Assembly (NCBI GenBank): GCA_043821285.1
Contig: JBDRCZ010000017.1
Span: 15,947 to 79,946, forward strand
Reading direction: 5' to 3'
Source of the DNA: Candidatus Omnitrophota bacterium
GTDB taxonomy: Bacteria; Omnitrophota; Gorgyraeia; B26-G9; JBDRCZ01
DNA: 64,000 nucleotides
Program-made: the position numbers and the translations under genes
The notes under the pieces: model-generated
Databases searched by the model: none
The model's input: only the letters and a program-made list of their open reading frames with translations
Told to the model about the DNA's origin: nothing
Shown here: one piece after another, positions 7,523 to 59,960 of the stretch
Numbering within the stretch: position 1 is the stretch's first letter
Layout: every line of letters starts with the position of its first letter

Positions 7523-7528
7523 AAAAAA

Positions 7529-11319: not shown

Positions 11320-11320
11320 T

Positions 11321-33140: not shown

Positions 33141-36100
33141 TTAGATTGCTTGCTCTGCTATAAATATATTAGGTACTGTTATTTCTCCGGCACTTGGTAT
33201 ATCTTCAAGTAATGTGTCCGGTGCAAATACATTTTCATTAGCAGGATTGGCTCTTGTGGCTATATCTTTAGCGTTTATAACACGTTGTGAGCGTCTGTCC
33301 TTATGAGCACTAGTGTCATTCGTTTCCTTTTGTAATTTTGCAAGAAGAACCGGATTATCTTTTATTTCACGGTGATTTTTGACGTTGGGAAAAAAACCTG
33401 TTGTCAGTTTTCTTGCGGCGGTTAAATCATCAACAGTTTGAATAATCATTCCTAATTCACCATTTAAATCTTCGCTATGAACAACACCAGCTTCTAATCT
33501 TACCTGCATGCCTAATTCTGAAATCACTTCATTAACTTTGATTTCGATCGCTTTCAAAGTAGCGGCAATTTTTTCCGAAGTAATTATCCCATCATCTTCT
33601 CTATAAGCTCCTGCAAATTGATTATAAACATTGTTATTAATTGATAGAATTACATCATTTCCAACATTGTGGCCAAATACATCATTAATAACCTTAAATC
33701 CAAAATGCAATTGTGCAAATTGTGCATCTCCATTTAAGTCTGTTTCTCTGTAAAACTCTCTGTTGCCGCTTGCTCTTATGAAATCATTTATATTTATGGA
33801 TGTAGAACTAACTATATAATGTGCTGATAGTTTTATCAGTTGTACACGGTTATTTTCTCTTTTTATAACGAGGTAGAACTTATCAGGCCGTTCATGTACA
33901 ATACTGATTGAAACAGCAGATTTGCCGTCTAAAATGTTTTGAATGGTTTTGCCCAACTTATCTCTTTCTATTACCGGGTAAAACTTGTCTAAATCTTCTT
34001 TCGAAATACCCGCATCTATCATTTCCTGACGTATTCTTTCTCCTTCAACTCCTAATTGAAATTTTTTATCGTCAGCTATTTTAATCGGTGATTTTCTCTC
34101 TTCGCGCTCAGGATCTGGGCGTTCGGATAATCCTATTCCTACTAACTTGTTGGCATATTTAGTCCTGCGCTGGGTGTATTCCGCCTCATCTCTAGCAATT
34201 CTTAGTTGTTCCAATAGACTCATTTGGGAAATATTAGGTATATCACTTATTTTTACTGCTCCTACCGGGGCAAAGGGAACATAAACAGGAAAATAAATCT
34301 TACCATTAATATCAATGTCAAGACATTTAAGATTAGCGAGTATCTCGGATAGAACAGTGTTTTCATCCTCTTCTACATCTTTAGTGAACAGTATAAATGT
34401 TTCCTTAGAAGCCTTTTCTTCTTCTGGCGTTAAAAATACTGATTTTGTGACCGTAGTAATGTTTCTTTTTTTATTTTCTCTTAATTTTTCTATCAACGCA
34501 TCTCTGTTACTATCATTTATATTTTTTAGGATTGCAAAAACGTATTTTCCTTCAATCCGTTCTATGACCTTGCGTTGAATTTGTACGAGAAAGTGCTCAA
34601 TAACTTCTTTTGGCAACATAGGTGGTAACAAACCAACAACCTCATCACCACTAACATGATAAACTGTTCTACCTCTTTCTTCAATTTCTTTACGAGCTGC
34701 CTCAATTAATGTGTTAATTGCAAGTATATTCACATTTTCCCAGCCATATACATCATTTCTACCCCTTAGTTCGCTGATGTCAAAGAATATCACCCAAGCA
34801 TTGTCGTCGTGTCTACCTAAAAATACCACTGCTTCTTTTTCCCATTTTTGTGCATTTTCTGGATAGGCTTCATTAAGAAAGTTTCTTACGCGTGTTGTAT
34901 TATCAAATAAAGTGGTTAAATACATTATAAACTCTTGCAGTTCGTTATAGGGTTCGTCAGTATCTTTTCTACTTAAAAGAACATCTATCACCTTAGTAGC
35001 CGCGTCCCTAAATTGCTGATCATTAATATTTTGGTTAATAATTTTTCTCCACTTCTCACCTAAACGCTTTATTTCAGCCTTCAGAAACATTTCTATTGCT
35101 TCCTCATCTTCGCCTTGTTCTTTACACCTATCTACTTCTAATATTACTTTTTCTACATCTGCGCCCAACTCAAAAGCAAAAAATTCCCCATCTCGTTCCT
35201 GACTGGAATTTTCTCTTGGCAAAATGCTTGCCATACCTAAGCTAAATGCTGCGATTAAACCTGCGGTTCCTCCTCCCATCCCTGATTGAAGCATTGATGC
35301 TGCGGAAAATTCTGGTTGAGATGGGAAATAACCAAGTGCTCGCATTAATGTTCCAATAGATGCTGCTAAAAGCACGATGGATATTTTAGGTTTATTTCCA
35401 AACCATGCAACTAACCTCCTAATTAGCGTACCTAACCTGTTCTCATGGGAAGGACTTTTGTTTAATGCCCTCCAACCAGTTGGATGCATAAATGCTACAT
35501 TAGTTGCTTTGCGTCTACGATGAAGAAGTCCGCTTATATTTGCAGGAAATATTATTTTTCTGCTTATCCACTTTTTTACCTCATAAGCAATATATATTAA
35601 TGTTAAAATTATGCCCAAACCAGGTATTACCATACAATCGCTAATAAAATTATTCCACTGTTTAACACGAGCATAACCTTCTCTTACAGTAAAACTATCA
35701 ATAAAAAACTCTTCTCCCATCGGTGGCATGATACCAAACTTAGCAATAAAATCTGCCTGGTTTTTAAATGCTTCTGTTGTTTCTGGATTGATATCAAAAA
35801 AAGGAATAACTAATCGAGCAATGTTAAAAATCAACGTTACTGGGTTATGTTTTATAAGAAATTCCATTGGGTTTTTAGGCAAATTATCGACATGATGACT
35901 TAAACGCACTAATGTAACAGCGTATTCAAAAATTCCTCGCTTAGTAAAGAAATTTAATCCAATATTAGGATTACCCCATGTTCCATTCCATCTTGAACCA
36001 TAGACAATATCAAAATTGCTTTCACGGATAGGTGGATTATTTGTCATAAGAATTTGGTAAGTTTCGGGAGAAACTAATTTTATCAAAAATAGCGCTGGTC

Positions 36101-39100
36101 CAATATGTTCTGCTCCTTCAGTTCCATCTCTTCGCTCAATAAAATCGTCCAACATGCCCGCAGCTTTATATTCATTGTAAAGTTTAATTACGGCTGTATC
36201 GATTTCCTGAGCTCTTTTTCGTGCTGTTGATTCTATAAATGATCCCGTGTTTTCATCAATTTTTGATGCAAGTGGAGAGTTTTGAAATGTTTCAATTAGA
36301 TTATGGAATTCATTTAAAGCTATTTGTAATTCTCCATTATTTTCTTGTAATGATACAGGTTGTGGTAATTCATTAAGTTTTAAACTGTCAGCTGGTGTTG
36401 GCTGTACTAATCCACTTTTTCCAACTGGTTCTAAAGATACAATGTTTAATGGTGCAGCAATTCCGATTGGTGCTAATATGGTCTGTGATCCGATAGCGAG
36501 GATAGTGAGTAAAGGCAATACTACCTTACGTGCAAAAGAGAAGTTAACACTGTGTTTAAAACCCCAGCCAAAAATAGCTAATCCTATCAGTCCTATTGCC
36601 GCAATTACAGCACCTGGCAAACCAAAAAATAACCCTGCAAACCCAATTGCCATAATTAACCCATCGATTGAAAGTGCTGTGGTTCCATTAGGTAACCTAC
36701 GGCTGGAATTATTATCCGGCGCAGTAATCTCTACATTATCTCCATGATTAAACGTCTGTTCTAAGTCTTCTACGCTTCTGGGCAAGCCGTTAACTTTTAA
36801 CACCAACTCCCCAGACTGGAGCATTTTTTGTGTGGTTAGGATGGCTTTGCGATTACGATCATTATAATAAGAAATCTGTGAAGTAATAGTCTTAATAAAT
36901 AAATATGCCAGCAGATCATAGATATTTGTTGCGGGAATCTGTTCTGCTGATATCAGTTCTCTAATACCATCTTGTTGACTATTACTGGCTTCTTTAGTTA
37001 TTGTTAATTGGATTAATGCTTTTTGTTCTTCTTCTTGCAATTTTTGAGTTTGCTGAGTTATTTCATCCTCTAAAAGAGCTAATCCAGCCCTATGCTGCTC
37101 TAAGATATCTTTTTCAGGATCAAATTCCCCTTCAGCACAAATTATTAACCCATTTGGCATAATATAGTAGACTATATTGAGATAGCCATGTGTGCTTTTG
37201 CCGATCATCAGTGAGTTTTTATTATTTAGCCAACCTTCGTACCTTTCCTTATGAAGCATAATTTGTTGGCTATGTGTATAATATCTTAACGTTGCATTAA
37301 TAAAACCTTGCGCATCGGCTTCCTCTTCTTTACGATAAGTAAGTGTTGTTCCATGCCCAATGAAACCATTTTTATAATGTTCAGGTAAGTTCTTCCATTC
37401 TTTGTTCAAACCACTTTCAATCCTTTGATGCAGTGATTTGTTTCCAGGAGCCGGTATGACACGTTCTGGCTCTGATGCTAATATCTCAAAGCTCGTGAAG
37501 GCATAAAAAATATTTTCTCTATCTGTCGCAATACCCATGCGTGTTTGACCCAAATTATCAGTTACTACCTGCCAGGTTGTTAATCCTATTTCTCGAGTAT
37601 ATGCAATTAGCGCCAGTTCGTATATTTCTTCTGTTAATAGTCCATCATTTACCATCCGCACAAAAAGCTTAAGAAATTCGTTGCTGTGATATATAAACCC
37701 GACCAATATTACTAAAGAAATTTTTCTTAATCTTTCTGTTGCGTTCTCTTCCTTTTTGAGTTTACAATAGATTGCTTCTATTGCAGTAACACAATCACTT
37801 TTGTATTCTGAGCCTATTGGATCGTCTTCTAACAAGATATTCCCTAATATCTGAACCGCGTATTCTGTTCCAATATCACCTAAAAGGTTTTTAACAGCCC
37901 TTAGGCGTAAGTAAAGCGGGTTAGTTTTATCATTCAACGCATTTGTCACAAGTTTTTCTGCAGGTTCACCAATTCCTCTTATAATCTCCTCACCAAGCAA
38001 AAGTAAGTTGGTTAAGTTCATATTAATTATATATCTATTTGGTTGTTGAATTAATGTTCTCATTCGCTTAATACAAGATTCAATCACATGTGCTCCCAAT
38101 ATCTCTTTCCTGCCAATTTCAACTAAATAGTCCTTTAAAAGTTCTTTTCTTATGTTAGCAAGCTCATAAGCTGAATGAAAAAATAAAATTATTAAACTAT
38201 CAGTTATTTTATCAACCATTTGTTTAATAATATTGTTTTGGTTTTCTGCTCTGGGATTTATTTTTAATGCATTGGCAATTTCAGTTATAAACTGTCTATC
38301 TCTATCTGATAATTCATCCTGTTGAATTCTATTGTATAAGACGAATAAATATCTTATAAAATAATTGAGTACCTCAATAACAGTTCTAAGAAAATCTAGT
38401 TCAGTTTCGTTAAATACTTCTTTTTTTTCAAATTTTTCCTGTGTCATTTGCTCAAATATTTCTTTTATCAATATAACCACTCGTATTTCATTACGTTCTT
38501 TAAGTATGTTAATAAGTAAACGTCTTATCCTCAGGTCAGAAGATTGAAGCACGTATTCTCTTATGTGGGGAAATGCCCGCTCGACAATATTACCTAACAC
38601 CGAAGAGGCAATTGTAACACGTGTTCCGCGATATATTAATCCCTGTTCACTTAATTCTGTAACAGCAGATTGAAGATTATCTTCTGATTTTTTTGCAATC
38701 TCCGTCAAAATATCAATAATCACATCTTGTTTTTTTTCTCCATGATCAAGCAGGTGCCGGATAGCTTTTACGCCAAACCCTTTAACCAAAATATCTTTAA
38801 TATCAGATGTTATTTCACGATCTTCACTATGAGCTGATAAGGCATCTGTTAAAAGGTCCATTGCCGTTGCAATTGTATCTTCATCTCTATTAGCAAATTC
38901 ACCAAGTTCAGCCATATTATCAGTACGTGAAGCGCGATCTCTATACGTAGCTAACTTATTAATCACATCCTGTATGTAAGCTCTCGTTGTACTATTATAA
39001 CTATTTCTATTGCTAAAATGCTTTGTTGTATCTTCTCCCGGATTGCCCCAATCTTGTAAACTAGAAAAAGGTAACTTTAATCCACCTATTCCGGCAAATG

Positions 39101-39581
39101 TCAGTTTAGGGTTTATGCATTGCCAAAATAAATAAACTACCCCTGTTATCATTAACAATACATAAGGATTATTAAAATAACCATGAGGTATATTAGAAGA
39201 TAAGGAAATAATTATTTGCTTAAGTGGGTATAAGATTGTGCTTAGCGGTATTATATTGCTTATTACCAACACAGAAAATATTGCTAAAGCAGTTATACCG
39301 GCAATATAAGCTAATGTTCTGAATCTGTTTAAAAAGATTGGTGATTCTGTTGTAGGTTGTTTTGTTGTGATGGTAGCTGGGGCATGAGGTGTCATTTTTT
39401 CTCCTGAAATTATGAAAGCATGTTCCGTTACGGAATTAGCTATTTGCAATTCAGGGGCAAGGTGGGTGTGTAGACCTTTTAGATTGCCGCCGGCGGCCCA
39501 GGAAATGTCCAGGCATAAAAAGGCATTGATTAATATTATGGAAATTAGTCTAAAATAAATTTTACGTGTTAAATTATTCAT
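33141..39581 (-). CDS. giant-family protein G2 (2146 aa), multi-pass membrane, two GGDEF-like segments
   Basis: N-terminus MNNLTRKIYFRLISIILINAFLCLDISWAAGGNLKGLHTHLAPEL; C-terminus ...NIFIAEQAI. Several long hydrophobic stretches. Confidence 0.8.
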   Translation of the reverse strand: MNNLTRKIYFRLISIILINAFLCLDISWAAGGNLKGLHTHLAPELQIANSVTEHAFIISGEKMTPHAPATITTKQPTTESPIFLNRFRTLAYIAGITALAIFSVLVISNIIPLSTILYPLKQIIISLSSNIPHGYFNNPYVLLMITGVVYLFWQCINPKLTFAGIGGLKLPFSSLQDWGNPGEDTTKHFSNRNSYNSTTRAYIQDVINKLATYRDRASRTDNMAELGEFANRDEDTIATAMDLLTDALSAHSEDREITSDIKDILVKGFGVKAIRHLLDHGEKKQDVIIDILTEIAKKSEDNLQSAVTELSEQGLIYRGTRVTIASSVLGNIVERAFPHIREYVLQSSDLRIRRLLINILKERNEIRVVILIKEIFEQMTQEKFEKKEVFNETELDFLRTVIEVLNYFIRYLFVLYNRIQQDELSDRDRQFITEIANALKINPRAENQNNIIKQMVDKITDSLIILFFHSAYELANIRKELLKDYLVEIGRKEILGAHVIESCIKRMRTLIQQPNRYIINMNLTNLLLLGEEIIRGIGEPAEKLVTNALNDKTNPLYLRLRAVKNLLGDIGTEYAVQILGNILLEDDPIGSEYKSDCVTAIEAIYCKLKKEENATERLRKISLVILVGFIYHSNEFLKLFVRMVNDGLLTEEIYELALIAYTREIGLTTWQVVTDNLGQTRMGIATDRENIFYAFTSFEILASEPERVIPAPGNKSLHQRIESGLNKEWKNLPEHYKNGFIGHGTTLTYRKEEEADAQGFINATLRYYTHSQQIMLHKERYEGWLNNKNSLMIGKSTHGYLNIVYYIMPNGLIICAEGEFDPEKDILEQHRAGLALLEDEITQQTQKLQEEEQKALIQLTITKEASNSQQDGIRELISAEQIPATNIYDLLAYLFIKTITSQISYYNDRNRKAILTTQKMLQSGELVLKVNGLPRSVEDLEQTFNHGDNVEITAPDNNSSRRLPNGTTALSIDGLIMAIGFAGLFFGLPGAVIAAIGLIGLAIFGWGFKHSVNFSFARKVVLPLLTILAIGSQTILAPIGIAAPLNIVSLEPVGKSGLVQPTPADSLKLNELPQPVSLQENNGELQIALNEFHNLIETFQNSPLASKIDENTGSFIESTARKRAQEIDTAVIKLYNEYKAAGMLDDFIERRDGTEGAEHIGPALFLIKLVSPETYQILMTNNPPIRESNFDIVYGSRWNGTWGNPNIGLNFFTKRGIFEYAVTLVRLSHHVDNLPKNPMEFLIKHNPVTLIFNIARLVIPFFDINPETTEAFKNQADFIAKFGIMPPMGEEFFIDSFTVREGYARVKQWNNFISDCMVIPGLGIILTLIYIAYEVKKWISRKIIFPANISGLLHRRRKATNVAFMHPTGWRALNKSPSHENRLGTLIRRLVAWFGNKPKISIVLLAASIGTLMRALGYFPSQPEFSAASMLQSGMGGGTAGLIAAFSLGMASILPRENSSQERDGEFFAFELGADVEKVILEVDRCKEQGEDEEAIEMFLKAEIKRLGEKWRKIINQNINDQQFRDAATKVIDVLLSRKDTDEPYNELQEFIMYLTTLFDNTTRVRNFLNEAYPENAQKWEKEAVVFLGRHDDNAWVIFFDISELRGRNDVYGWENVNILAINTLIEAARKEIEERGRTVYHVSGDEVVGLLPPMLPKEVIEHFLVQIQRKVIERIEGKYVFAILKNINDSNRDALIEKLRENKKRNITTVTKSVFLTPEEEKASKETFILFTKDVEEDENTVLSEILANLKCLDIDINGKIYFPVYVPFAPVGAVKISDIPNISQMSLLEQLRIARDEAEYTQRRTKYANKLVGIGLSERPDPEREERKSPIKIADDKKFQLGVEGERIRQEMIDAGISKEDLDKFYPVIERDKLGKTIQNILDGKSAVSISIVHERPDKFYLVIKRENNRVQLIKLSAHYIVSSTSININDFIRASGNREFYRETDLNGDAQFAQLHFGFKVINDVFGHNVGNDVILSINNNVYNQFAGAYREDDGIITSEKIAATLKAIEIKVNEVISELGMQVRLEAGVVHSEDLNGELGMIIQTVDDLTAARKLTTGFFPNVKNHREIKDNPVLLAKLQKETNDTSAHKDRRSQRVINAKDIATRANPANENVFAPDTLLEDIPSAGEITVPNIFIAEQAI
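33400..33790 (-). other. GGDEF-like segment 2 of G2 (degenerate)
   Basis: LHFGFKVINDVFGHNVGNDVIL...AYREDDGIITS. The FKxINDxFGHxxGDxxL block is kept, but the signature is degenerate (EDDGI). Confidence 0.5.
34350..34830 (-). other. GGDEF-like (nucleotidyl-cyclase fold) segment 1 of G2
   Basis: VIFFDISELRGRNDVYGW...TVYHVSGDEVVGLLPP parallels DxDxFKxxNDxxGH...RxGGDEFxxxLP. The signature reads SGDEV. Confidence 0.55.
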
Positions 39582-40054
39582 AAGTTAATAGCCTATCAGT
39601 TAATTCCAAATGTTCCGCCTATCAAACCGGCGGACAGGCAAATAATAAAATCCAAATGACAAATGAATCATTTAATATCTCAATCTAAAAATCAAAATGA
39701 TATATTAAAATTCAAATATTTTTCTCTTTGACAGGATTTACAGGATTAACATGATTTTTTATCCAGTTAATCCTGTCTATTTTCTTATTTTCTCTGTGAA
39801 CTTTGTGTTCTCTGTGGTTATAAATTTTTTTATTTTTTTTAATCGTAATACTCAATACATGCTACTCAATACGCATTACTTTTTATAGTGTGCTCTCTGT
39901 GGTTAAAATATTTTTTGTTTTTTTATCTACATAATCATCCGTATTCTACGCTCTCTTTTATATGCACTATTTTCATTACAATCATACATATTGTAACCGC
40001 TAATAATTACAATCTGTTAAATATATTTATAACAATTTTAATATATACAAGTAA

Positions 40055-40082: not shown

Positions 40083-40421
40083 GGATTTTGCTAAAAAAAT
40101 ATAGAAAATAACAGATTAAAAGATTCAGGTGATCACGGTTTTAAAACAGTATCAAGGCATTATTTATAACTTATTTATTTATAATATATTATAAAATAAT
40201 TATCGAATATGCCTACATGTTAATTATTCGTGAAATTCGTGTAATTTGTTGTTTAAAAATAAGCAGTTAAAGTTTTTCTTTGTGTGATAAATTTTATTTT
40301 TTACCGCAGAGAAAATCTAAAAGAAATCTCGTTCACAGATGTATGTAAGTTACATCCACTTTCTATTCTTAGTGCGTTACGTAAACGGTAAACTGCCTGC
40401 CTCCCGTTAGGGAGGTAAACT

Positions 40422-40446
40422 AAAAAATTGCCATAGGCAATTTTTT
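40422..40446 (-). terminator. terminator hairpin after G3
   Basis: Minus strand reads AAAAAATTGCC-TAT-GGCAATTTTTT then AGTTTACC. Overlaps the stop codon by 2 nt. Confidence 0.55.
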
Positions 40447-43400
40447 AAATTGCCCGTTCAATTTCAAACAAATCTGCTATCTCTCTCTTCTCCAGTTTTG
40501 TATCTGATCCATTTATGCCTACCCTATAGCCAGTGTGTCTTTCTTGGGGAGCAACTATTAGAGAATAAAGAGCGTGTAGTAACAGCATATCAGAATCAGA
40601 AATATGAGGGTCTATATTTTTTGCTTCTAATATTGATTCATCATCGCTTATTATTTCTTGTATAATTGTTTTTACTATATCTCTATCTTCAGCTCTGCAT
40701 TTTTCATGAATTGCATTCAGACATTGTTCAAAAAATGGTCTGAGCATCATAAGCTGAACATTATCTTCTTGTGTATATGCATTGGCAACTGCTTTTGTAA
40801 CTGTTTCTAAAACAGTTTGCCGGTAATCTGGTCTTACCGTATAGATATTATCAAAAAAGATAAAAGTCCCGGCTGCGGCTTGTGGCATTATTGTCTTGTT
40901 TAGTATCTCATTAATAACATTTCGAGGAAAATATACTAAAATACTTAATAATTTATCTATTGTAGTATTACTTGGGGTTAAACCTTGCTGCTGGATCAAC
41001 TCTTGATATTTTCTTCCTATGATTCTATGCATAGATTCAAGACTTCTTCTATTTGCATTTATCATTAAATTATTTCCTTTAACTGCTGTAACTAAGTCCG
41101 TTAATTCGCTTCGTATCATTTCTCGTTCTTTCTCAAATACATCCGTATCTTCGTTCCTCTGAGATATAAATAACCCTAAAAATTCAAGTTCTAATGCTTT
41201 TTTAAAGGCATCTTCCGAAGTAAATGCGTTTAATCTAACAGTAATATTTTCTAACAACATTAGCTCAAAGCTGGTACCTTGACGAAAAATATGTTTTAGA
41301 AATTTTTCTGCATTAGTAAATTCGGGTGAAAAGATGATTTCTCCACTGACACCATCTACTGTTTTCTCCATCACTTCATTTATCAAATTACCTACTGAAT
41401 CTAAGTTGTGAAACTCGTTTAATCTATTTTCATCTTGTATAACAGCTCTTAAATAAACCTCCATTCTTAAAAGGTAATCAGCCAAAAAAACACCATCAAT
41501 TGCAAAACGTATATTTTCATTCGTATCTTGAGTTCTTGCAGTCAAGGCTTGATAAAGAAAATCATCTATATCGGTCAACATTCTATAAAAGATTTCCATT
41601 GCTGTTTCCTTATCCTGTTTTAGAGCAAGTTCGAGGACATTATTAACATTTGAAAAATCTCGTGAAATATACTCCTTAATTACATCACATAACGCATTGA
41701 ACAGTGGTTTTTTATCACGACGGTAAATAGCAAAACTTAGCCTAATAAATGCTGCTAATATCTCATGGGAATTAAATCCTGAATTTATTAAATAACTTTG
41801 CTCCTTTTCTATATAGATTGGTATAATTTTAGAAACGTCATATCCCGCAATAACTGTGTAAGCAACTGCAGCAAAAATAAGATTATGTGTTTCTGCATCA
41901 TGTTTAGGAATGTTTATTCGTTGTAAGATTTCTCCTAATACTTCTCCTGCCTCAGTAGTTCTCTCCTCTTTTCCTTCAATCTGCGCTTTTATTTTATTAG
42001 TAAAAAATTCAAAAACAAAATCAGGTTCTGCCTTAAGATACGCTTCTATTGTTTCCCAATCTGCTGCTAATAAATTACGCAGTTTTTGGATTTTATCTTG
42101 AACCACGATTAAGTTATTTCGTAGATTGCTTATTTTTTTCTGATTTTTTCTCGTTTGTTTTTGCTCTTTGTTTATGGTTTGCTGAATAGTTCTTTCATTG
42201 CTTTGGCGACGATTAAGTGCCTGCGTCCTTGTAATAACTCCTTCTAAGAGGATTGTTACTTCAGAGAGTTTTTCTCTACGCGCTTTTACTGCCGGGGGCA
42301 TATCTAAAAGTAGAGGTTCCCTTGTTGTCACTGGAGCCTGCCATGCTGGAAGTTCTTCAGATGCTACTTGCATAGCAGCAGCGCCTTGAAGGACCTGAGG
42401 ATATAATGAATGTTTTTGCATTGGGTCTTCAACTAACATAAGCTCACAACTTTGAGGCGGTTTGAGAGCATTAATTCTATTTTGGATAACTACTCCCAAT
42501 CCCCAAGCCCATTCTGCTTGACTTTTATATAAATCAACTAAGGCTTCAATATCCTCACTTTCGTTTATAATTGCGGTTATTCTCTCTACCAGAGGAGCCC
42601 GGCTGTTTCTGTTAGGATAGGTATTAAGCATTTGATATAATTCAGGTATATTACTTAAATCATTATAACCGAGTAATCTTTTTCTCAGTACCTCTGCTAT
42701 TACCCCCCTTATTTGCTTACATCCGTAGGTATATTTATTTATAGAATTATCTGTAAGTAAACGAAGCAGGTTTTCGATATCTAAGGAAAACACTTGCCTG
42801 ATAATACCGAAAATAATATATATTTCTACTTCAGAGTGAATTTTTTTACTAAGTAAATTAGCTAATGCAGCAAGTGCCTCGCCCCCCCATTTACTAACCA
42901 TCTCCTGAGCAATAGCTTGAGCTTGTGTTTTGTCATTATTTTCTGCTTGCTGACGTTTAAATCTATCGGAAATTGCGGTTAATCGTTCAATGCCATCTTC
43001 AATCGAAGAAACAGTTAGGTGTATTTCTGATATTTTTCCTTGAGAAGCAATACTATTACTTAATTGTGCGGCTGCTGCTTGCTTTGTTTTCTGGGGTAAC
43101 CTTGGATTTCGTGACCACTCTGAAAGCAAGCGATCATTTACTTCTGCTAATCTTTTTGCAGTGCTTAACGCCTTAATTCTATACCAAAGATAATTATTCC
43201 AGTATTCATCGTCCCATTCTTGGCTTAGATACACATCAACTAAGGCAACAATATCTTGATTATTTTTTATTATATGTTTCATCCTTCTTCTTGCCAGATC
43301 TTTAATGTCTTCGTTCGGACATAATGTTTCATTATTAATAACATAATATAATGCAGAAATACTTGTTACGTTTCGAGGAATGCTAACAGTTTTTATGATA

Positions 43401-46400
43401 ATTATGCTTTTAATCATACCTCTGGTAACTTCAGCTCCTTTAGTTTCTTGCTGATTCATCGCAGTATATAAATAAAATATTTCTGTAACAGACATTGAGT
43501 TAAGACAATTACCAAGTGCCGACATAGTTATTTCTATTGCTTCTTCATTAAGAAGATTCGTATCAATTTGCTCAGCAAATTGTTTAATAATTTCTAAAAA
43601 CTCATCTTTATCCTTTGTGTTATACATTTCTGTTATAATATTTTTAACTTCTTGAGGAGCGGATGCAATAAAGGCTTGTATTTCTTCGGGTGTCTGATAA
43701 TAATCAGCCAACTCTTTCTCCAGCTTTTCTATTTGTGACGCAATTGTCGTATCTAGTTCTGGTTTATTAATTCGCAGCCACTCTATTATTCTTTTTCTTA
43801 CTGTCCGATCTTGGATGCCAATCAATAATCCTAGTACATGCACTACCTCGTTTTCTAAACACATGTATTGTGACAAGATGTCGTTAAGTTCCGTATTCGC
43901 TGCATTGCTAAAGAATAGGTATATAGTACCAGCAATATGTTTTTGTATGCCCGTAAGTCTAAGGATTTTTTCACTCAAAATATTTCTTATGCTCGAACCC
44001 CAGCTTCTTTCTAAATATAATTCTACTGCTGTCTTTAAATTATCACATTCATTAACCAGTTCTCTTATTCTCATCCTTAGCAGTGCCCGGGTTCCTTCAT
44101 GGTACTCTCTATCATTGAGCAAATCTTGCAGTGGTTCGATACTAGCAATGCCTTGATATTCAGCAAGGCGCTGTTTGATCGCTTCTATTAATTGACTACT
44201 ATTGTCCCCATGATTTAACCTACGCAATAGTTCCTCTAAGGTGAGAGTTTTTATGGGGTCAAAATCTGCTAGTAGTTCTGCAAAAGTTACTTGATTATCA
44301 GAAGGCGCTGCAACTTCTCTTGTCGGGGGGGCATCCCTGTTGGTGTCGGCTCTTTGATTAGCGTTTCGCCATGCTGCTCTTAAGGCACGTGTATCTGACT
44401 GTGATGGTGGCTCTGGAAAATGTACCACCTGAGCTGCATTCGACGGAGCTGTTGTTCGTACAAACCTATCTGGAGGGGATAGTGATAGATCGAAAGCAGC
44501 TGCTAGTTTTTCTAATGAGTTTAGAGTCAAAGGGTTATTGTTTCCTGATGGAGGAACTGTATCTTTTGGTAAAGCAACTTCTGCTGTGTCAGTCCCTTCC
44601 TTTTCTGGTTGTCGCAAGTCACCTGATTGTAATGGTACGGTGTATGCTTGAGGGTTATTTTCTTTTTCCCTTTCCCTTTTCCTTTTCTTTCTTGCAATAG
44701 GAGGACTATCTGCTCTATATTGTTTACGTGCTTTCCTTTTCATTAATACAACTTTATCTTCTTCTTCATCATCATCATATTGGTCACTATCATCTATTGC
44801 ATTTATTAACTCCTCTATTATGAGCATTAAAGCAATCCGTATATTTTCTTCTGATAATTCACCCGAACCCTCTTGCATCAATTGCTCAATTTCTTCCTCT
44901 GACAAAGTTAAATCGTTTATAACACCAATGAGCTGTTCAATGATTTGACCATTCTCGTGTGCGCTTTCAATTATATTATCTATAGCATCTTTTAACGCTT
45001 CATGATATGTATCTTCATCAAGTAGTAAATAAGTTTTTACTAAAAAACTAAGATCTATTTCTAAAGCACTATTTCTCGTTGATCTTACGCCGGTACTACC
45101 AAGCAAGCATAGTAAACTAAATCCCCAAGCCAACCCCTTCCAAATAAAAAATGCCAGTGCATCTGGTCTTGCGGCAACAAAGTGTACTACTGGATATAAT
45201 AATCCTTCATGTCGTGCAAGAGAATTTATGATTGTAAATTCGATGTAGTCGATAATAATGAGCATAGCTGATTTAGCACCAGTAACCGCCTTTTTAACTA
45301 ATTCCCAAACATTTGGTATAAATTGTATCTGCGGTTGTATATATAAAGGAAAGGTCATTATTAAGGAAAGACCTAATATAGCGTGTATTGGTAAATGCCC
45401 TAAGTTTACACTAACCGGGATGCCCGTGATATTACTGATTACCTCTAATATAAAAGGTGCAATCAATAATAAAAAGAGGCCATTTATTAATGGATGGGAA
45501 TTCAGGGTAACACTCTTACCAGCATTACTTTCTTGATAAAATTCTCTTACCGCTCTATTTGTTTTTATTAAAGCACGTAAATCAATAATGATATTTCCAT
45601 TTCTATCTTTACGAAGGTCATGTTTATTTTCCTTGTCAGATAAAAATATCTTATCATCTTCTTTCACAATTTTATATTCCACGTTACCAATCCAAATAAT
45701 ATCATTTTCCCTGAAAGTTACTTCTTTCCTTAAAATATCAATGATTAATTCCTTGCTGTTTGCTTCGTTACGCAGAAGAATAGTATTACCAGCTATTGCA
45801 TATTTTGTATTATCTATCATTCTGTCTTGATGCCACCATGCTATTCTGAGTTTGTAACCATCACCCTTTCCCTCAGTTTTTATTTTTTTTAGACCATCTG
45901 TTGGGAAAAATTCTAACCGTTCTCGTAAACGCTGGATTTTAGTATTGTATTGTCTTATATCTAAAATTCGCTTGTTATGAATGTTCTGAATTACAGCTAA
46001 TAACTCGTTGTCCTTAATACTTGCTAATAATGCGCCATAAAAGGCCAGACCTAAGCTATCTACTCTTAAAACTATTCTTTCTATTTCTGTGTGTTTGTTT
46101 TTGTTAAATAGAGTTGTTAAATAATTAGCCAATATCAGTACAAATTCCCCGCCCCACCACTTTATAACCTCAACCAATTGACCAAGAGACTGCGGTGTAA
46201 TATTTTGATGTTCATTCAGGAGATTTTCAATAATTTGTAATACTGCAGAAACTGAATATACACCAAATTGTTCGGCCAAAGCTTTGATTATTGCCAATCT
46301 TTGCGTTTCATCAAAATTATTAAGATTAGCTTCTTTTTCTTTCATCATCTTAATATAATTTTCGGCTGAATCCCAATCTTGAGTAGACTTATTAGTATCC

Positions 46401-47536
46401 CAATACTGTACTGGTTTGCGATACACTGCTTTTGCTGCTACTAATATATTTTTTTCTTTCTCTGTAAGTGCGGTGTCATCATTTGTCCATATCCTAATCA
46501 TTCCGTGTCTTGGTGCTGTTATATAAAATGAAATTTTTGACGCAAGAAACTCTTCCCATTCTTCTGGAGAAGGCACAGTTGATAAATCAGCACGTAAACG
46601 TATAAAACGGTTATAGTTTTTATTTTCGTTATTAATTATGTCTGCCGGAAGCAGCCGCCGGCCAACATGAATTTCTATATTAGAGTTTTCTGGTATTGGT
46701 TGGGTATAACGGCTTCGATCAGGGGTTGAAACATTCCAGTAGTTTTGTGTTGATATACCAAATCTCAAAGATTCGTTATCTATTTTTATGCTCTCGGGAG
46801 CAAAAAACATCATCATAATTGCATGCGCAGGTAAACGTATTGCATCAATCCAGTAGTGAATTCCTTTACGATAACTATACTCAAGGATAATTTTAATACC
46901 ACGTTCAAACAGAACTTTTAATCCGGGTAAAAAGGCAATATTATTAAATACGCTGTTGGTATTTAATCTAAAGACTTCCATATCCCTGGGGACAGTAAGC
47001 ACTATTCGCGGAGACGCACCTTTAATATCTATTTTTCCATAAGTAGTAATTTCACTTTGCAAATCACGCGCCAACCCAAGCAAACTTAGAAAGTCAATTT
47101 CTTTTAGAACCGGGGGTATTCTTTCAACCGTCTCATCATCTGGACAAGGTATTTCTGGAATTTCCCTAATATTTAATTGATTGTTTTTTTTAGAAATTAC
47201 ATAAGAACGTTGTTTACCAGCTGCGCCTGTTGTTACAAACAATACTATCGAACCATCATTCGCAAATCTTTTCTCGCATGCATCAAACTCAAACTTATCT
47301 TTAATATAACTTACGCCAACATGTCCTTCTGCCCAAGTATATGCATCACTTATTTTTTTGTAAAGCATAATATTTTCTGCAAATAGAGGGTCATTTACTT
47401 CCAAAGGCGGGGCAAGATGGGTATGTAGACCTTTTAGATTGCCGCCGGCGGCCCATGAGATGTCTAAGCATAGAAAGGCATTGATTAATATTATGGAAAT
47501 TAGTCTAAAACAAATTGTACGTGTTAAATTATTCAT
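40445..47536 (-). CDS. giant-family protein G3 (2363 aa), function unknown
   Basis: N-terminus MNNLTRTICFRLISIILINAFLCLDISWAAGGNLKGLHTHLAPPL; C-terminus ...DLFEIERAI. Contains a TM cluster and an acidic then basic/Pro-rich low-complexity segment. The C-terminal ~500 aa are paralogous to G6. Confidence 0.8.
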   Translation of the reverse strand: MNNLTRTICFRLISIILINAFLCLDISWAAGGNLKGLHTHLAPPLEVNDPLFAENIMLYKKISDAYTWAEGHVGVSYIKDKFEFDACEKRFANDGSIVLFVTTGAAGKQRSYVISKKNNQLNIREIPEIPCPDDETVERIPPVLKEIDFLSLLGLARDLQSEITTYGKIDIKGASPRIVLTVPRDMEVFRLNTNSVFNNIAFLPGLKVLFERGIKIILEYSYRKGIHYWIDAIRLPAHAIMMMFFAPESIKIDNESLRFGISTQNYWNVSTPDRSRYTQPIPENSNIEIHVGRRLLPADIINNENKNYNRFIRLRADLSTVPSPEEWEEFLASKISFYITAPRHGMIRIWTNDDTALTEKEKNILVAAKAVYRKPVQYWDTNKSTQDWDSAENYIKMMKEKEANLNNFDETQRLAIIKALAEQFGVYSVSAVLQIIENLLNEHQNITPQSLGQLVEVIKWWGGEFVLILANYLTTLFNKNKHTEIERIVLRVDSLGLAFYGALLASIKDNELLAVIQNIHNKRILDIRQYNTKIQRLRERLEFFPTDGLKKIKTEGKGDGYKLRIAWWHQDRMIDNTKYAIAGNTILLRNEANSKELIIDILRKEVTFRENDIIWIGNVEYKIVKEDDKIFLSDKENKHDLRKDRNGNIIIDLRALIKTNRAVREFYQESNAGKSVTLNSHPLINGLFLLLIAPFILEVISNITGIPVSVNLGHLPIHAILGLSLIMTFPLYIQPQIQFIPNVWELVKKAVTGAKSAMLIIIDYIEFTIINSLARHEGLLYPVVHFVAARPDALAFFIWKGLAWGFSLLCLLGSTGVRSTRNSALEIDLSFLVKTYLLLDEDTYHEALKDAIDNIIESAHENGQIIEQLIGVINDLTLSEEEIEQLMQEGSGELSEENIRIALMLIIEELINAIDDSDQYDDDEEEDKVVLMKRKARKQYRADSPPIARKKRKREREKENNPQAYTVPLQSGDLRQPEKEGTDTAEVALPKDTVPPSGNNNPLTLNSLEKLAAAFDLSLSPPDRFVRTTAPSNAAQVVHFPEPPSQSDTRALRAAWRNANQRADTNRDAPPTREVAAPSDNQVTFAELLADFDPIKTLTLEELLRRLNHGDNSSQLIEAIKQRLAEYQGIASIEPLQDLLNDREYHEGTRALLRMRIRELVNECDNLKTAVELYLERSWGSSIRNILSEKILRLTGIQKHIAGTIYLFFSNAANTELNDILSQYMCLENEVVHVLGLLIGIQDRTVRKRIIEWLRINKPELDTTIASQIEKLEKELADYYQTPEEIQAFIASAPQEVKNIITEMYNTKDKDEFLEIIKQFAEQIDTNLLNEEAIEITMSALGNCLNSMSVTEIFYLYTAMNQQETKGAEVTRGMIKSIIIIKTVSIPRNVTSISALYYVINNETLCPNEDIKDLARRRMKHIIKNNQDIVALVDVYLSQEWDDEYWNNYLWYRIKALSTAKRLAEVNDRLLSEWSRNPRLPQKTKQAAAAQLSNSIASQGKISEIHLTVSSIEDGIERLTAISDRFKRQQAENNDKTQAQAIAQEMVSKWGGEALAALANLLSKKIHSEVEIYIIFGIIRQVFSLDIENLLRLLTDNSINKYTYGCKQIRGVIAEVLRKRLLGYNDLSNIPELYQMLNTYPNRNSRAPLVERITAIINESEDIEALVDLYKSQAEWAWGLGVVIQNRINALKPPQSCELMLVEDPMQKHSLYPQVLQGAAAMQVASEELPAWQAPVTTREPLLLDMPPAVKARREKLSEVTILLEGVITRTQALNRRQSNERTIQQTINKEQKQTRKNQKKISNLRNNLIVVQDKIQKLRNLLAADWETIEAYLKAEPDFVFEFFTNKIKAQIEGKEERTTEAGEVLGEILQRINIPKHDAETHNLIFAAVAYTVIAGYDVSKIIPIYIEKEQSYLINSGFNSHEILAAFIRLSFAIYRRDKKPLFNALCDVIKEYISRDFSNVNNVLELALKQDKETAMEIFYRMLTDIDDFLYQALTARTQDTNENIRFAIDGVFLADYLLRMEVYLRAVIQDENRLNEFHNLDSVGNLINEVMEKTVDGVSGEIIFSPEFTNAEKFLKHIFRQGTSFELMLLENITVRLNAFTSEDAFKKALELEFLGLFISQRNEDTDVFEKEREMIRSELTDLVTAVKGNNLMINANRRSLESMHRIIGRKYQELIQQQGLTPSNTTIDKLLSILVYFPRNVINEILNKTIMPQAAAGTFIFFDNIYTVRPDYRQTVLETVTKAVANAYTQEDNVQLMMLRPFFEQCLNAIHEKCRAEDRDIVKTIIQEIISDDESILEAKNIDPHISDSDMLLLHALYSLIVAPQERHTGYRVGINGSDTKLEKREIADLFEIERAI

Positions 47537-47854
47537 ATGTTAATACCCTGTTAGTTAATTCCAAATGTTCTAATTCAAGATTTAAAAATTCCAAGATTCC
47601 AGATTCTAAAATTATAAAATTCCCCGCTACAAGGTCGAAGATCCGCCATCGTATTAGTGAAGAACGCTGGCGAACAGGCAAATTCTCTAACCTTCGGCAA
47701 GTAAAACGTTTTGAATCGTTAAATCTTAAAATATTCAAATTTTGGAATTGTTTGTTTTATTCTTCTGTCTTCTATTCTCTACCTTCTGTTTTCTGCTTTC
47801 AATCAGCTGTATCAGTAAACGGTAAACTGCCTGCCTTCCATTAGGGAGGTAAAC

Positions 47855-47879
47855 TAAAAAATTGCCGCAGCAATTTTTT
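47855..47879 (-). terminator. terminator hairpin after G4
   Basis: Minus strand reads AAAAAATTGC-TGCG-GCAATTTTTT then AGTTTACC. Confidence 0.55.
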
Positions 47880-50800
47880 AGATTGCTTGTTCTACTGCCA
47901 ACATTTCATTCCACTCTAACTCTGTAAGTGCAGGGGGTTGTTTAGGCATTGTTGTCAATTGTCCTGGGTTATTATCATGAGGATCCAGTCTTTGCTGCTC
48001 TACAATCTTTATTGCTGCTTCAATAATCGCTGCAGTGTCCATCTTATGTGCACGGTATAATATCTCGTGACTTCTTGCGGATTGTCCCCAACCTTGGATT
48101 CCTAACGAAGTTACAGTTGAACCAGTTGTAAGCAGAGATGAAGTTACTACCTTACTTACTGCTCCGCTTAATATTTTTGGAGAAGCGTCTTGAACAGTAA
48201 TTATTGGCACTCCCCGTTCAAGAAGAGGTGGTAAAGCTTCATCGATTAAATCCAATCTGGTCAAATTTATTACTTTTGCGGTAATATCTTGACTTTCCAA
48301 TTGTTCGCTCGCGGCAATTGCAAATTCCACCATTGCTCCGGCAGCAATAATAATAATATCGCTATTTTGTCCGTTTTCTCTTGGATCTTTAATTACATAA
48401 GCACCTTGTTCTGGACTGGGATTTTCTCCTCTATTTAAAACTGGAACATTTTGACGGGTAAGCTGAAGATAAGAAGGTCCTTTACCATCTAATGCCCTGT
48501 GCATAGCAAAATCTACTGCTTCTTCAGCCTCACGGGCATCTGCAGGTATAAAACCAGTCATTTTTTGCAAAAAAGAAATATAGCGAATAACGCCAGCAAC
48601 GATTACTGACTGATGAGTAGAACCGTCTGGCCCAACGCCTAAGCCGGCATGACTTAACGCAACAATTACCGGTAGTTTTGCCCGGGCAATCACAATTATT
48701 TGACTAATCATTCGGTTAGCAAAACAATCAAAGGTTGCGATAACTGGTATCTTACCATATAATGCTAATCCAGCAGCAATTCCTGCCATTGCTTGTTCTC
48801 TTACTCCGGATGGAACGTATCTTCCATTGGTGTTATGACGAGAAAAAATGCCAAAGTCCCTAGCAAACCAATTCAGTCTTGTAGAACTGGCAATGTCCGC
48901 GCAGAAAGCAATAATCTTTTCGACGCGTTTTCCCCAGTCAAGCATCCTGTTACCAAAACCATCACGTGTAGCAAAATTCCTATTTGCTTGGTATCTAATT
49001 TCTGCCGGTGTTTGTAGCATTGTCATTTGAACCGGCTCTGGCTCTTGTGTTTGTTTAATGTTGCTATAAATAAGCAGATTGAATTCCCCAATCTTATAAG
49101 GAACCATTCCATTCAATGCTTCCATAATTGTTGTGGCCATGATGTGTTCATCAAAACCCCGGGTAATAATTAAAACAGGTTTTCCTGTATTATCCTTGTT
49201 TAGCTGTTCAAAGGTTTGACCTAAGATTTCAGCCTGTTCTTGATTATTATTAGCATTGAGCTCAATCACTCTCCAACCATAAGCTTGCCAAATATTAACT
49301 AATTCCGTGTTTGTCTCTGAAGCTTGAAGGACTAAGCAGAGATTATCTATGCCATTGTGTGCGGCGAATCTAGCTGTTTCTGCAAACTGACCTTCTCTTT
49401 CTTCTTTTTCCGTGGCTAAAGCAATAACTCTGCCAGATGCTGTATCCATTTTAGCTCCAAAAGCTATACCTGCGGCCAGAGAAAGACGCATACCCGCAGG
49501 GAATATTTCTTGAGGACTAAAATCTATTTTCATAAGCCCGTCCGTGGGTTTTTCTTTTCCATCAACTAATTCTTTTGCTACTTCTATTATATTTTCAATA
49601 TCCTTGTCACTCATGGACCAAACAACGGAACCTGCGGTTTTAGAAGATGAAGTTACAGTCCTGCTTACCGCATCACCTAAACATACTGGCAATCCATCAT
49701 AAATTGTAAGAATACGGCTTCCTGGCTCAATATACTCTAAGAGCTCACTTCCTGCACCTAATGAGTCTAATTGCGTAACATTTATGATCTTAGTCATCGT
49801 ACCTTGTGATTCTAACTCATTACTGACTTTTATGGTTTGATGAAGACTTTTACCTGAAGAAATAAGAATAACCCTCTTTTTTGCCGTGTCCCACCCTTCA
49901 GATTGACTTATAACATAGGCACCTTGCTCTGGCTGGGGATTTTCTCCTCTATCTATAACCGGAAGATCTGCAGAACTTAAACGAATATAAGAAGCAGTGT
50001 ACTCATCTGGGATATTAAGTGATGTAGGGGCTTTATTTGTTATTTTAGCCAATAATAATGCATTTTTTATTGCCATATCAGTCAACTCATTAGTTTCATT
50101 AGGATCCCCTGGTTCTAACGCAATTACATTATGCATCAGGTCCATAACTCCTGGGGTAAAACTTAACTCTTCAGATTCAGCCGCTAAAATAAACGGTACC
50201 CTTGCCTGAGCATTTATCCTTAATTGGTCTAACATTTTCATCGCATCATTTTCCGGCAGAAAGACAATCGGCAGCATACCCGAATAACCAAACCCAGCAG
50301 CAAAACTGGCTAAGTGCTGTTCTCTATCCTCAACTAAGAAACATCGCTCGATGAGTTTATTTCTTATATCTTCATCAGTAATCTGTGCAATAAATTCATC
50401 AATAAATCTTTGTTTAGAATCGGAATTATTAAAAATAAATACTATCCGTTCATCTTTTTCTGCCCACTGGAGTAGTCTATTTTTAAATGCAACAGATGGA
50501 GAGACTTCCTCATCCTGTGCATAGTTGGTTCTATCTGGTATTGTTGTCGTGTCTGTTTTTTGTAGAGTACTCTCTTTTGATAAATTGTTTTCTTCTTGTT
50601 CTGTCATTTGGTTATCTGAAATAAATCTATCTACATCTGTTGAAAATCCATAAAAATTCATTTGTTGACTAATATTTTCAATTGTGTTTTCTATTTGGGG
50701 GATAGCTTCAGATAGTTCTTTATCATTTAATGCTCTACCGTGAAACGCGGTTGGATCATCTTCCATAAAATCTACGCCTTTACCTTTTTTTGTCTTGGCA

Positions 50801-53553: not shown

Positions 53554-53751
53554 GATTTGTAGATATGTTTATCCATTCCAGATTTTAAAATTCCCCGCCA
53601 TAATGCGTTGACAGGCAGATTCAAAATTTAAATATTTTCTTTGAAACAAGTGTCACATGATTAATCTGATTTTTTATCCTTCTTTATCCTATTAATCCTG
53701 TCTATTTTTTCTGCTTTTTTGTCTTCCAAATTCTGACTTCTGTTTTCTATC

Positions 53752-55232
53752 ACAGTACTTTGTTAAAAATCAGGTCTTTTCAAAAAAATCATTTACGTAA
53801 GTCGTGAAAACTCATAACTTATGTAATTTCAATACTTTACGTTAATTTTTTCCTTGACAATATCCACAACTCCTGCTATGGTATATAGTTGTAATCAAAC
53901 CACCGTAACACACAACAGGAGGTGGATATGGGTATTTTTAATCTCACTATTTCGGTAATCAATAATTTCTTATTTCGTTTTAAACCTGCCTTCTCAAAAA
54001 AACAATTTATCGTTTTCTCCTTCCTGATCTATGCTTTGTTTAAAGACTACAAGAGAAATTCCCTTTATGCCCTCGCCTCTAAAACTCCAATCAACTATCA
54101 GGCTTGTCAGTACTTCTTATCTGAAGGAAAATGGAGTATCGATGATCTTAATAATATAAGGTTAAAAATTATTGAACATCAAAGAACTACTTCTGCTACT
54201 TCCTCCGGCGTCTTAGTTATTGATGATACTTCTCCTAAGCCTTTTGCTAAAGCTACCGCCGGTGCTAAACGTCAACACTGTGGTGTCTTAAATCGTGAAG
54301 AAATCTGTAATGTTGCTGTATTCTCTGCCTTCGCCTCCAAAACTAAACGCTTCCCGATAAACCTTAAATCTTATCTCCCCGCTGAAAAATTCTTATTTGG
54401 CAAAGAGGATGTAGATTTTAAAAGTAAGCTCGATCTTGCCCAAATATTAGTCGATGATGCCTTAGAAAGAAAAATTAAATTCTCTTCCCTCGTCATAGAT
54501 GCATGGTATGCTCAGTCTTCACAATTCCTTGAGTTTGTTCACTGCCAGAGAAAACTGCCCTTCATTGGTGAATTAAAGTCCAATCGTAACATCTTCTTTT
54601 ACCATCCGCTAAAGCGGAAACACTGCTGGATCCAGCAGGATGAGCTGGTGAAACTCATCAAAAAACATTATCCGCATAAGTGTAGGTTTTTTACCTCCAC
54701 GAGCAAAGATGGTAAGAAGAAGTCTTGGGTCTTCTACACCTTCAAGGGACTGCTGAAAGATTGTTCTGTTCCCTTAAGCATAGTGGTGATCTTTGGTAAG
54801 TGGGATAATCAGGATGATAAGAATGTTCATATCCTTATCTCCAATCAGACCCGCCTGGCTACTAAGACCATCATTTCCACCTACCTGCTTCGTTGGGGAA
54901 TAGAGCTTATCTTCAGGGAGCTCAAGGATGTCTTCTCCTTTGACCAATACCAGGTTAGACATACCAAACAGATCGAACGTTACTAGACACTATGCCTTAT
55001 TGCATGGAGCCTGTTATATTGGGTCAAACAAAATGCCTATCTTACCAAAATCCTTGAGCATAAACCTGCTACCTTCTATGACTACAAACAGGCCATTGAC
55101 TCCTTACTCCTTTATGATGCTCATCAGTCTCTTTCAAAGAACAGTCATCTTGCTCAGAAATATTTTAAAATTAAATCGGATAATTTTAAACAGCAAATCG
55201 CTCGCGTTGCCTGATTTTTAACAAAGTCCTGT
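53752..55232 (+). mobile_element. IS4/IS701-like insertion sequence (1481 bp)
   Basis: 23-bp terminal inverted repeats ACAGTACTTTGTTAAAAATCAGG (53752-53774) and reverse-complement ACAGGACTTTGTTAAAAATCAGG (55210-55232), 1 mismatch. Direct 6-bp flanks TCTATC (53746-53751 and 55233-55238). Confidence 0.8.
53922..55214 (+). pseudogene. DDE transposase (IS4/IS701-like) interrupted by an in-frame TAG
   Basis: VLVIDDTS, LVIDAWY, YLLRWGIELIFRELK blocks. TAG at 54984-54986, after which the same frame continues 75 codons (TLCLIAWSLLYWVKQN...QQIARVA) to TGA 55212-55214. Confidence 0.65.
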
Positions 55233-55287: not shown

Positions 55288-55312
55288 AAAAATTGCCGAT
55301 GGCAATTTTTTT
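55288..55312 (-). terminator. terminator hairpin after G5
   Basis: Minus strand reads AAAAAAATTGCC-ATC-GGCAATTTTT then AGTTTACCGTTTAC. Confidence 0.55.
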
Positions 55313-59036: not shown

Positions 59037-59560
59037 AATAAATATCTCCAGTTATTTAATTTTAAATGTCCCGCCTATCAAACCGGCGACAGGCAAATGA
59101 ATCATTAAATAATTCAATCTTTAAAATTTATTTATGTAATTTGTGTGATTTGTTGTTAATAAAATAAGTACTTGAAATCTTTCTTTGTGTGCTCCGTGTC
59201 TCTGTGTGACAAATCTAATATTTTTGTTTCGCTTGTCCGCCGTGCTCTGTTTGGCGGGTCATTCTGGTTTCGTTATTCGTTATTAAATTATCCTGTCTAT
59301 CATCCACAATGATTGGCGGATCTTCAATTTTTTATATTTTCTCTGTGAACTTTGCGAGCTCTGTGGTGATAAATTTTTTATTTTTTTTTACCGCGATACT
59401 CAATACTCATTGCTTTTTATAGTGTGCGCTCTGTGATGATAATTTTTGTTTTGTTTTTTTAGCCACAATGCTCAATACACAATACCCGATACTTAATCAT
59501 ATTACTTTTCATAATGCCTTGTTATAAATAAATTTATAACATCTTTTAAATAGTTTTATA

Positions 59561-59935: not shown

Positions 59936-59960
59936 AAAAAGTTGCCATAGGCAACTTTTT
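59936..59960 (-). terminator. terminator hairpin after G6
   Basis: Minus strand reads AAAAAGTTGCC-TAT-GGCAACTTTTT then GTTAACCGTTTACTGTTTACC. Confidence 0.55.

Follow-up and report, generated by a model that had tools for sequence, protein, structure and literature searches.

We describe an unannotated protein domain of about 565-590 residues that is shared by two long genes, G3 and G6, in a 64-kb segment of a bacterial chromosome (hereafter the window; ~36% GC) from Candidatus Omnitrophota. Both genes belong to a series of six long open reading frames (ORFs), G1 to G6, that occupies the minus strand from 29.8 kb to the end of the window (Table 1). We hold with moderate confidence that this domain is an old module that serves as a non-catalytic interaction scaffold on the cytoplasmic side of the membrane. 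Its homology, rarity, fold class and mosaic placement we regard as established; its location and function we infer.

The G3 and G6 proteins aligned by BLASTP, with adjustment for composition, at 338 bits and E = 6e-99 (212/590 identities, 36%). In Smith-Waterman comparisons with shuffled residues, the solenoid part of the domain scored z = 111 for this pair, with none of 100 shuffles scoring as high, and z ranged from 58 to 111 among all six pairs of the four homologues introduced below. The original prediction, which was made from the letters of the window alone, that G3 and G6 share a paralogous block is borne out by these alignments. It gave the length of the block as ~500 residues; the homologous unit is longer, because the helices upstream belong to the domain. 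The shared strings that it quoted are all present in the translations, except that the last should read DNVQL.M.R, as G3 has E rather than Q in the preceding position. When G1 to G6 were aligned pairwise and all-versus-all, the similarity was significant beyond composition and the block was the sole similarity between protein bodies; G1 to G5 otherwise have in common only an N-terminal leader of ~50 residues. Beyond the block and a C-terminal E[QR]AI motif, nothing further was detectable between the parts of G3 and G6 that are visible in the window.

The domain is very rare. A profile made from the G3 and G6 copies and searched with HMMER against 1.84 billion (1.84e9) cluster-representative proteins gave three matches, namely G3 itself and two proteins from other assemblies that we call P0002 (MDO8488725.1, GCA_030647935.1; 3365 residues, partial) and P0003 (GCA_041643215.1; 1610 residues). 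Scans of GTDB species-representative genomes, JGI metagenome contigs and IMG/VR yielded no relatives of the block. An alignment of the four sequences G3, G6, P0002 and P0003, designated A3, is collinear over the whole block, with profile matches of 267-1062 bits. In all, 4-5 copies of the domain are known among about 1.8 billion representative proteins. G3 and P0002 are labeled taxonomically as Candidatus Omnitrophota. So far the domain occurs only in long multidomain proteins, and its three annotated copies are from uncultured Omnitrophota.

Structure prediction from A3 with AlphaFold2 (AF2) gave an all-alpha model with a mean predicted local distance difference test score (pLDDT) of 87.6 and a predicted template modeling (TM) score of 0.82, in which an N-terminal hairpin is followed by ~25 further helices. 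The modeled fold is that of a HEAT/ARM-like acidic alpha-solenoid with an added basic-tipped coiled-coil hairpin. Among PDB structures, the fold search gives generic HEAT/ARM-like matches and no specific relative. Foldseek returned no PDB match at E <= 1e-3; the best matches, all with a TM-score <= 0.30, were designed repeat proteins, cohesin SA2, CTNNBL1, beta-catenin and importins. The HEAT/ARM-type matches extended over less than half of the domain, with a high root-mean-square deviation, and a search of viral folds in BFVD with the block model returned noise only. At the sequence level, no model in Pfam, NCBIfam or PADLOC matches the block in G3, G6, P0002 or P0003. Relaxing the Pfam threshold to E <= 5 yielded only inconsistent coiled-coil noise for the four members, with no match to HEAT, HEAT_2, Arm or Adaptin_N, and a PDB sequence search with the block gave coiled-coil noise only.

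The segment immediately 5' of the block as first delimited is aligned and conserved in all four homologues. On its own, this segment scores z = 8.2 between G3 and G6 (none of 500 shuffles as high) and z = 6.8-16.8 across the six pairs, each of which beats all 500 shuffles. Invariant hydrophobic residues in A3 recur at a spacing of 3-4 (L31, I35, L41, I51, I55, L72, L76, V79, I83 and L86), and AF2 models residues 15-60 and 66-103 as two long helices with pLDDT 91-96. We read these helices as a putative antiparallel coiled-coil hairpin with heptad-like spacing. The tip of the hairpin has a net charge of +4 to +8 and the solenoid one of -15 to -22 in all four homologues. This upstream Arg/Lys-rich segment had been described as low-complexity, a description that does not hold for it as a whole: it is the conserved hairpin of the domain, and we reject a linker defined by composition alone, on the grounds of this positional conservation and of the shuffle comparisons for the hairpin alone. 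What stands is the run QRQRQRQR in G6, which is the sole true low complexity in the upstream segment. Tandem Repeats Finder assigns it to a hexanucleotide repeat, (CAGAGA)x4, and it lies inside RRSEPRSSRRQRQRQRQRSP, an insertion of 18-20 residues right at the tip of the G6 hairpin that is a gap in the other three sequences. The string KRKARK...RKKRKREREK of G3, which had also been tied to the block, is unrelated to it; this string (residues 915-959, positions 44660-44794) sits ~800 residues upstream in a charged linker after a cluster of transmembrane segments, and has no counterpart in G6.

The placement of the block differs from protein to protein. It lies near the C terminus of G3 (residues 1734-2297 of 2363), in the middle of G6 together with an extra partial copy, near the N terminus of P0002 (135-672 of 3365) and late in P0003 (918-1462 of 1610). 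Its partners differ as well: a transmembrane cluster and other repeats in G3; TPR and winged helix-turn-helix regions in G6; in P0002, ~2700 residues after the block that include an extracytoplasmic function (ECF)-sigma-like region and a SAM-methyltransferase; and in P0003 a VTT/DedA membrane domain that precedes the block. The domain is flanked by Pro-rich linkers. The block therefore behaves as a self-contained module, with differing position and partners. The original prediction held that the protein bodies are built by module shuffling; the proteins are indeed mosaics of this kind, and shuffling as the process behind them is read from the architecture.

The most likely role of the domain is that of a non-catalytic interaction module, as suggested by the fold class, the conserved distribution of charge and the lack of an enzyme signature. 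On the cytoplasmic side of membrane-associated long proteins, the solenoid would present a surface for binding, and the basic-tipped hairpin could mediate dimerization or contact a negatively charged partner, for instance membrane or nucleic acid. The start of P0002 lies 90 nt downstream of the preceding gene, and the protein has a complete N terminus without a signal or hydrophobic segment before the block; this, together with the cytoplasmic-type modules, suggests that the domain is probably on the cytoplasmic side. Several points weigh against a cytoplasmic scaffold. Its function is deduced from the fold class alone, and A3 contains ~64 invariant columns, with acidic or polar residues in many (E149, H151, D167, K178, E179, D281, D287 and others); these might make up an active site or a ligand site, which the term scaffold would miss. 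A hydropathy scan finds 3-5 possible transmembrane helices before the block in G3. In G6, the block is separated from a winged helix of the DNA-binding type by a single hydrophobic stretch; if this is a true transmembrane helix, the block and the winged helix would lie on opposite sides of the membrane. In addition, the fold comparison spans the PDB and BFVD, and a specific relative among predicted structures is possible, and the alignment consists of four sequences only.

Alternatively, the domain may be a regulatory or anchoring module whose basic-tipped hairpin binds nucleic acid or anionic lipids and so positions or controls fused transcription-type modules, a role that we consider possible though doubtful. 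The fused modules in question are the winged helix of G6, whose BlaI-type match is just over the Pfam cut-off, and the ECF-sigma-like region of P0002, a full-length sigma70-ECF-like match (E = 1.3e-7) in a protein that NCBI names 'sigma factor'. Moreover, the tip stays basic in all four proteins although the rest of the domain is acidic, and membrane segments are present in G3, G6 and P0003. However, no DNA-binding module is detectable in G3 or P0003, the sigma-like region of P0002 is ~1400 residues away from the block and its match is under the curated cut-off (31.4 vs 42.9 bits), and the basic residues of the tip are conserved in character but not in position. It is unlikely that the block is instead dedicated to the assembly or regulation of a lineage-restricted protein-sorting family, joining the proteins with the leader and E[QR]AI ends into a membrane-associated complex while its tip contacts membrane or nucleic acid. 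In such a family, the shared leader and the E[QR]AI motif would be handled by one sorting or tethering machinery. That the block acts not as a passive scaffold but as a cryptic enzyme of all-alpha fold, or as a domain that binds a ligand, is rather improbable. The first half of the solenoid does contain invariant acidic and polar residues (E-x-H, G-x-D, K-E, D-G-x-F-L-x-D), and the neighboring G4 and G5 are enzyme fusions, but searches of Pfam, NCBIfam and PDB sequences found no similarity to enzyme families, and no known catalytic motif was recognized.

The two copies in the array appear to be old. Block identity is 37.2% between G3 and G6, 34.5% between G3 and P0002, 33.1% between G6 and P0002, and about 28% in the pairs with P0003; quartet-informative columns split 13:11:9, which favors no grouping clearly. 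G3 and G6 are thus barely closer to each other than either is to P0002, which suggests that the two copies are about as old as their split from the copy in the other metagenome-assembled genome (MAG). At the DNA level, the best stretch within the block is 70% identical over 238 nt, so an assembly repeat is excluded. The block shows no visible recombination boundary, and its GC content at third codon positions (GC3) shows only a slight dip (0.22 vs 0.26), with no evidence of foreign origin. We interpret the G3 and G6 copies as the probable result of an old duplication or of separate acquisitions rather than of recent gene conversion. A recent exchange of the block within the array, by gene conversion or segmental duplication, is highly improbable. 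The 5' ends of the array genes are homogenized, with G2 and G3 89% identical over 175 nt of 5' untranslated region (UTR) and leader, which suggests gene conversion there; yet the block itself has only 37% protein identity, DNA identity of about 70% or less at best, and hardly less distance between G3 and G6 than to P0002 of another MAG, and we rejected recent conversion of the block for these reasons. That the similarity is an effect of helical, charged, low-GC composition or an artefact of assembly or duplication has a vanishingly small probability: the genes are AT-rich (GC3 about 0.22-0.26) and helical and G6 has its one low-complexity run, but the composition-adjusted E value, the shuffle scores, an alignment that stays collinear through 590 columns and includes long identical strings, the presence of independent homologues in two other assemblies and a nucleotide identity too low for a mis-assembled repeat all speak for homology.

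Table 1. Features of the long-gene array and of the shared domain, in window coordinates.
Feature	Position	Strand	Remarks
G1	29833-32820	-	995 aa
G2	33141-39581	-	2146 aa
G3	40445-47536	-	2363 aa; MFH1776244.1, 'hypothetical protein ABH952_01585'
G4	47878-53553	-	1891 aa; transketolase domains
G5	55311-59036	-	1241 aa; methyltransferase, PRTase-like and HAD-like domains
G6	59959 to beyond 64000	-	incomplete; reading frame open at 63999
Domain, G3 copy	40646-42337	-	aa 1734-2297; Pro-rich linker at start, helical hairpin, alpha-solenoid (modeled); BLASTP extent, four-sequence alignment, AF2
Domain, G6 full copy	61270-63030	-	BLASTP extent, four-sequence alignment
Domain, second, diverged partial copy in G6	63577-63954	-	profile positions 281-411
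Putative antiparallel helical hairpin, G3	42029-42295	-	aa 1748-1836; QTINKEQKQTRKNQKKISNLRN at basic tip; AF2, shuffles, charge
(CAGAGA)x4 hexanucleotide repeat, G6	62794-62817	-	encodes QRQRQRQR; Tandem Repeats Finder, period 6, 4 copies
G3 tail after block	40448-40645	-	66 aa; family C-terminal motif ADLFEIERAI
Copies of another helical module in G3	42359-46195	-	aa 448-545, 1096-1183, 1314-1494, 1552-1726
G6 extension after block	59962-61269	-	436 aa; C-terminal motif DMVYAIEQAI
G6 hydrophobic stretch	61093-61149	-	hydropathy scan
G6 SNAP/TPR-like helical region	60478-60801	-	Pfam SNAP, 26.9 bits (cut-off 25)
G6 BlaI-type winged helix	60109-60336	-	Pfam Penicillinase_R, 24.2 bits (cut-off 22.6)
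Leader common to G1-G5	G1 32695-32820; G2 39447-39581; G3 47402-47536; G4 53419-53553; G5 58902-59036	-	
[IVA]E[QR]AI-stop, ends of G1-G6	29836-29865; 33144-33173; 40448-40477; 47881-47910; 55314-55343; 59962-59991	-	
Conserved intergenic repeats	39582-39935; 47537-47802; 53554-53756; 59037-59470; 40381-40447; 47815-47877; 55288-55310; 59936-59958		

Because its reading frame is still open at the last position read, G6 is cut by the end of the window and its N terminus lies outside. In addition to the full copy of the domain, G6 contains a second, partial one: hmmsearch with the A3 profile reached E = 4e-13 (37.3 bits), hhalign gave 93.7% (E = 1.9e-7), and BLASTP matched it to residues 2018-2130 of G3 (E = 7e-4). 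The domain is therefore present at least twice in tandem in G6, and the older or more diverged copy runs past the end of the window. The A3 hidden Markov model found no further copies in G1, G2, G4, G5, residues 1-1733 of G3 or the remainder of P0002 and P0003. As originally noted, G6 runs on long after the block and G3 ends soon after it. A single-sequence AF2 model of the long G6 extension was of low confidence (pLDDT 40) and was used for secondary structure only; its residues 313-378 follow the order helix-helix-helix-strand-strand and resemble a winged helix. Upstream of the block, G3 carries 3-4 diverged copies of a different helical module, with local alignment scores of z = 11.7, 10.2, 7.5 and 4.1 (200 shuffles) and the motifs KWGGE..L.LAN.L and DI.ALVD[LV]Y.SQ.EW; this module is absent from the visible part of G6. 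Neither G6 nor a relative at >=50% identity was recovered in the search of the 1.84e9 representatives, though G1 to G5 are in the collection, and G6 may have been annotated as a pseudogene or left uncalled.

The array as a whole combines constant, homogenized ends with old, heterogeneous bodies. The leader, of ~45 residues (~50), follows the pattern M..L.R.I.F.L..IILINAFLCLDISWAA.GNLK.L.THLAPPL and is signal-peptide-like, with a cleavage-type site (SWA|A) and then a conserved stretch of 15 residues; in G3, the signal-peptide-like part is followed by the conserved GGNLKGLHTHLAPPL. Amino acid identity of the leader among G1 to G5 is 55-89%, and scans of GTDB species genomes, JGI metagenome contigs and IMG/VR brought up no relatives of it. 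At the other end, all six long ORFs, and only these among the 58 ORFs of >=100 aa in the window, terminate in [IVA]E[QR]AI-stop. This end is preceded by a short hydrophobic or amphipathic stretch and a Pro-rich linker, and the last 10 residues are amphipathic, without a transmembrane helix. The wobble positions of E[QR]AI vary (GAA/GAG, CAA/CAG/CGG, ATA/ATC/ATT), suggesting that selection acts on the peptide. NCBIfam sorting-signal models (PEP-CTERM, LPXTG, GlyGly-CTERM and others) matched neither terminus, and looking through the literature on Omnitrophota for sorting signals was unproductive. The intergenic regions of the array contain several 50-70-nt repeats. The start codons of G2 and G5, and partly also those of G3 and G4, are directly preceded by a ~45-nt element, and terminator-like hairpins of the form AAAAATTGCC-N3-4-GGCAATTTTT stand directly 3' of the stops of G3 to G6.

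Among the other genes of the array, G4 is composed of the leader, ~600 residues without known match that include two hydrophobic segments, and transketolase N-terminal, pyrimidine-binding and C-terminal domains. Its transketolase-type matches fall in more than one stretch, and 58 nt are repeated within the gene (48392-48449 vs 49910-49967, 83% identity), suggesting a partial duplication of the enzyme unit. The gap between G4 and G5 contains a gene for a DDE-type transposase in the opposite orientation (53922-54986, plus), and one for an IS200-like Y1 transposase is just outside the array (27148-27954, minus). A gene that follows G1 encodes an H-NOX (HNOB) protein (28969-29508). On the plus strand, positions 86-25373 hold housekeeping genes for ThiC, GuaA, DnaE, a PilZ-PilB-type ATPase, HisRS and AroB; GC3 is 0.30-0.39 in GuaA, DnaE and HisRS (within 5778-15063) and 0.25-0.28 in the long genes (29833-63999). 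By exact look-up, G1 to G5 and the housekeeping proteins of the window are NCBI entries of one 85,997-bp contig from a Candidatus Omnitrophota MAG. The single Rfam match in the window is a tRNA (973-1044, plus) that shares 10 nt with the 3' end of the ThiC-like ORF (86-982), and the sole PilZ domain in the window is the N terminus of the PilB-like ATPase (11321-12718).

Published work portrays the long proteins of Omnitrophota as mosaics of domains, with scaffolding of the HEAT/TPR type and duplications that are ancient and diverged (bioRxiv 10.64898/2026.06.07.730766; bioRxiv 10.1101/2023.11.21.568195), and a small pilZ gene has been reported directly downstream of Omnitrophota giant genes (bioRxiv 10.1101/2023.11.21.568195). 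The array resembles these giant proteins (West-Roberts et al. 2023; Nielsen & Lui 2026) in phylum, in a topology of signal peptide and transmembrane segments, in the combination of multiple enzymes with HEAT/TPR-type scaffolding modules, in repeats that derive from old, diverged duplications, in consisting mostly of sequence-unique proteins, and in the pilZ gene that comes right after P0003. That gene encodes a small PilZ-domain protein (L002 4882-5223). The differing positions and partners of the block also agree with the published mosaic build. In contrast, G1 to G6 are 1-2.4 thousand residues long (G6 being incomplete), far under the catalogue threshold of >=10 thousand residues, and have no dockerin, TSP3, C39 or SecA domains by Pfam; the array genes share a leader and an E[QR]AI C terminus, and their shared domain has no Pfam model. 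Term searches of bioRxiv 10.1101/2023.11.21.568195 and 10.64898/2026.06.07.730766 found no description of leader, N- or C-terminal, or signal-peptide features like those of the array. We rejected an archaeovorin/dockerin-type giant protein because none of those Pfam domains occurs in G1 to G6, whose lengths are 995-2363 residues, and an anti-phage defense protein because PADLOC has no match for G3 or G6 and G5 has only generic methyltransferase/PRTase-type matches.

The domain also differs from the known HEAT/ARM scaffolds (Efr3, cohesin SA2/STAG2, importin-beta and exportins, beta-catenin, NOT1). It shows no sequence similarity to them, with no HEAT/ARM match in Pfam even at E <= 5, its N-terminal basic-tipped coiled-coil hairpin of 90 residues is not part of those families, and it is bacterial, and from Omnitrophota where labeled taxonomically. 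Multigene families with a conserved 5' UTR and signal peptide and divergent bodies occur elsewhere, for example in the variable lipoprotein families of Mycoplasma. Like these, the array keeps a near-identical 5' UTR and leader (up to 89% at the nucleotide level) before bodies that are unrelated or share modules. Unlike these, its bodies are large fusions of enzymes and scaffolds with transmembrane segments rather than short, repetitive surface antigens, and the array has no lipobox and no evidence of phase variation.

The domain is a very rare helical-repeat module, probably a scaffold, within the mosaic long proteins of Omnitrophota, and it adds one well-defined, confidently modeled orphan domain to a group of proteins that is poorly annotated. 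The domain itself opens no long-standing question. More intriguing at this locus is the leader of G1 to G5 together with the E[QR]AI tag at the C terminus of all six genes, the block being one cargo module among others. The array provides a clean, small-scale example of how long proteins are built, with old modules re-used at differing positions between constant ends.

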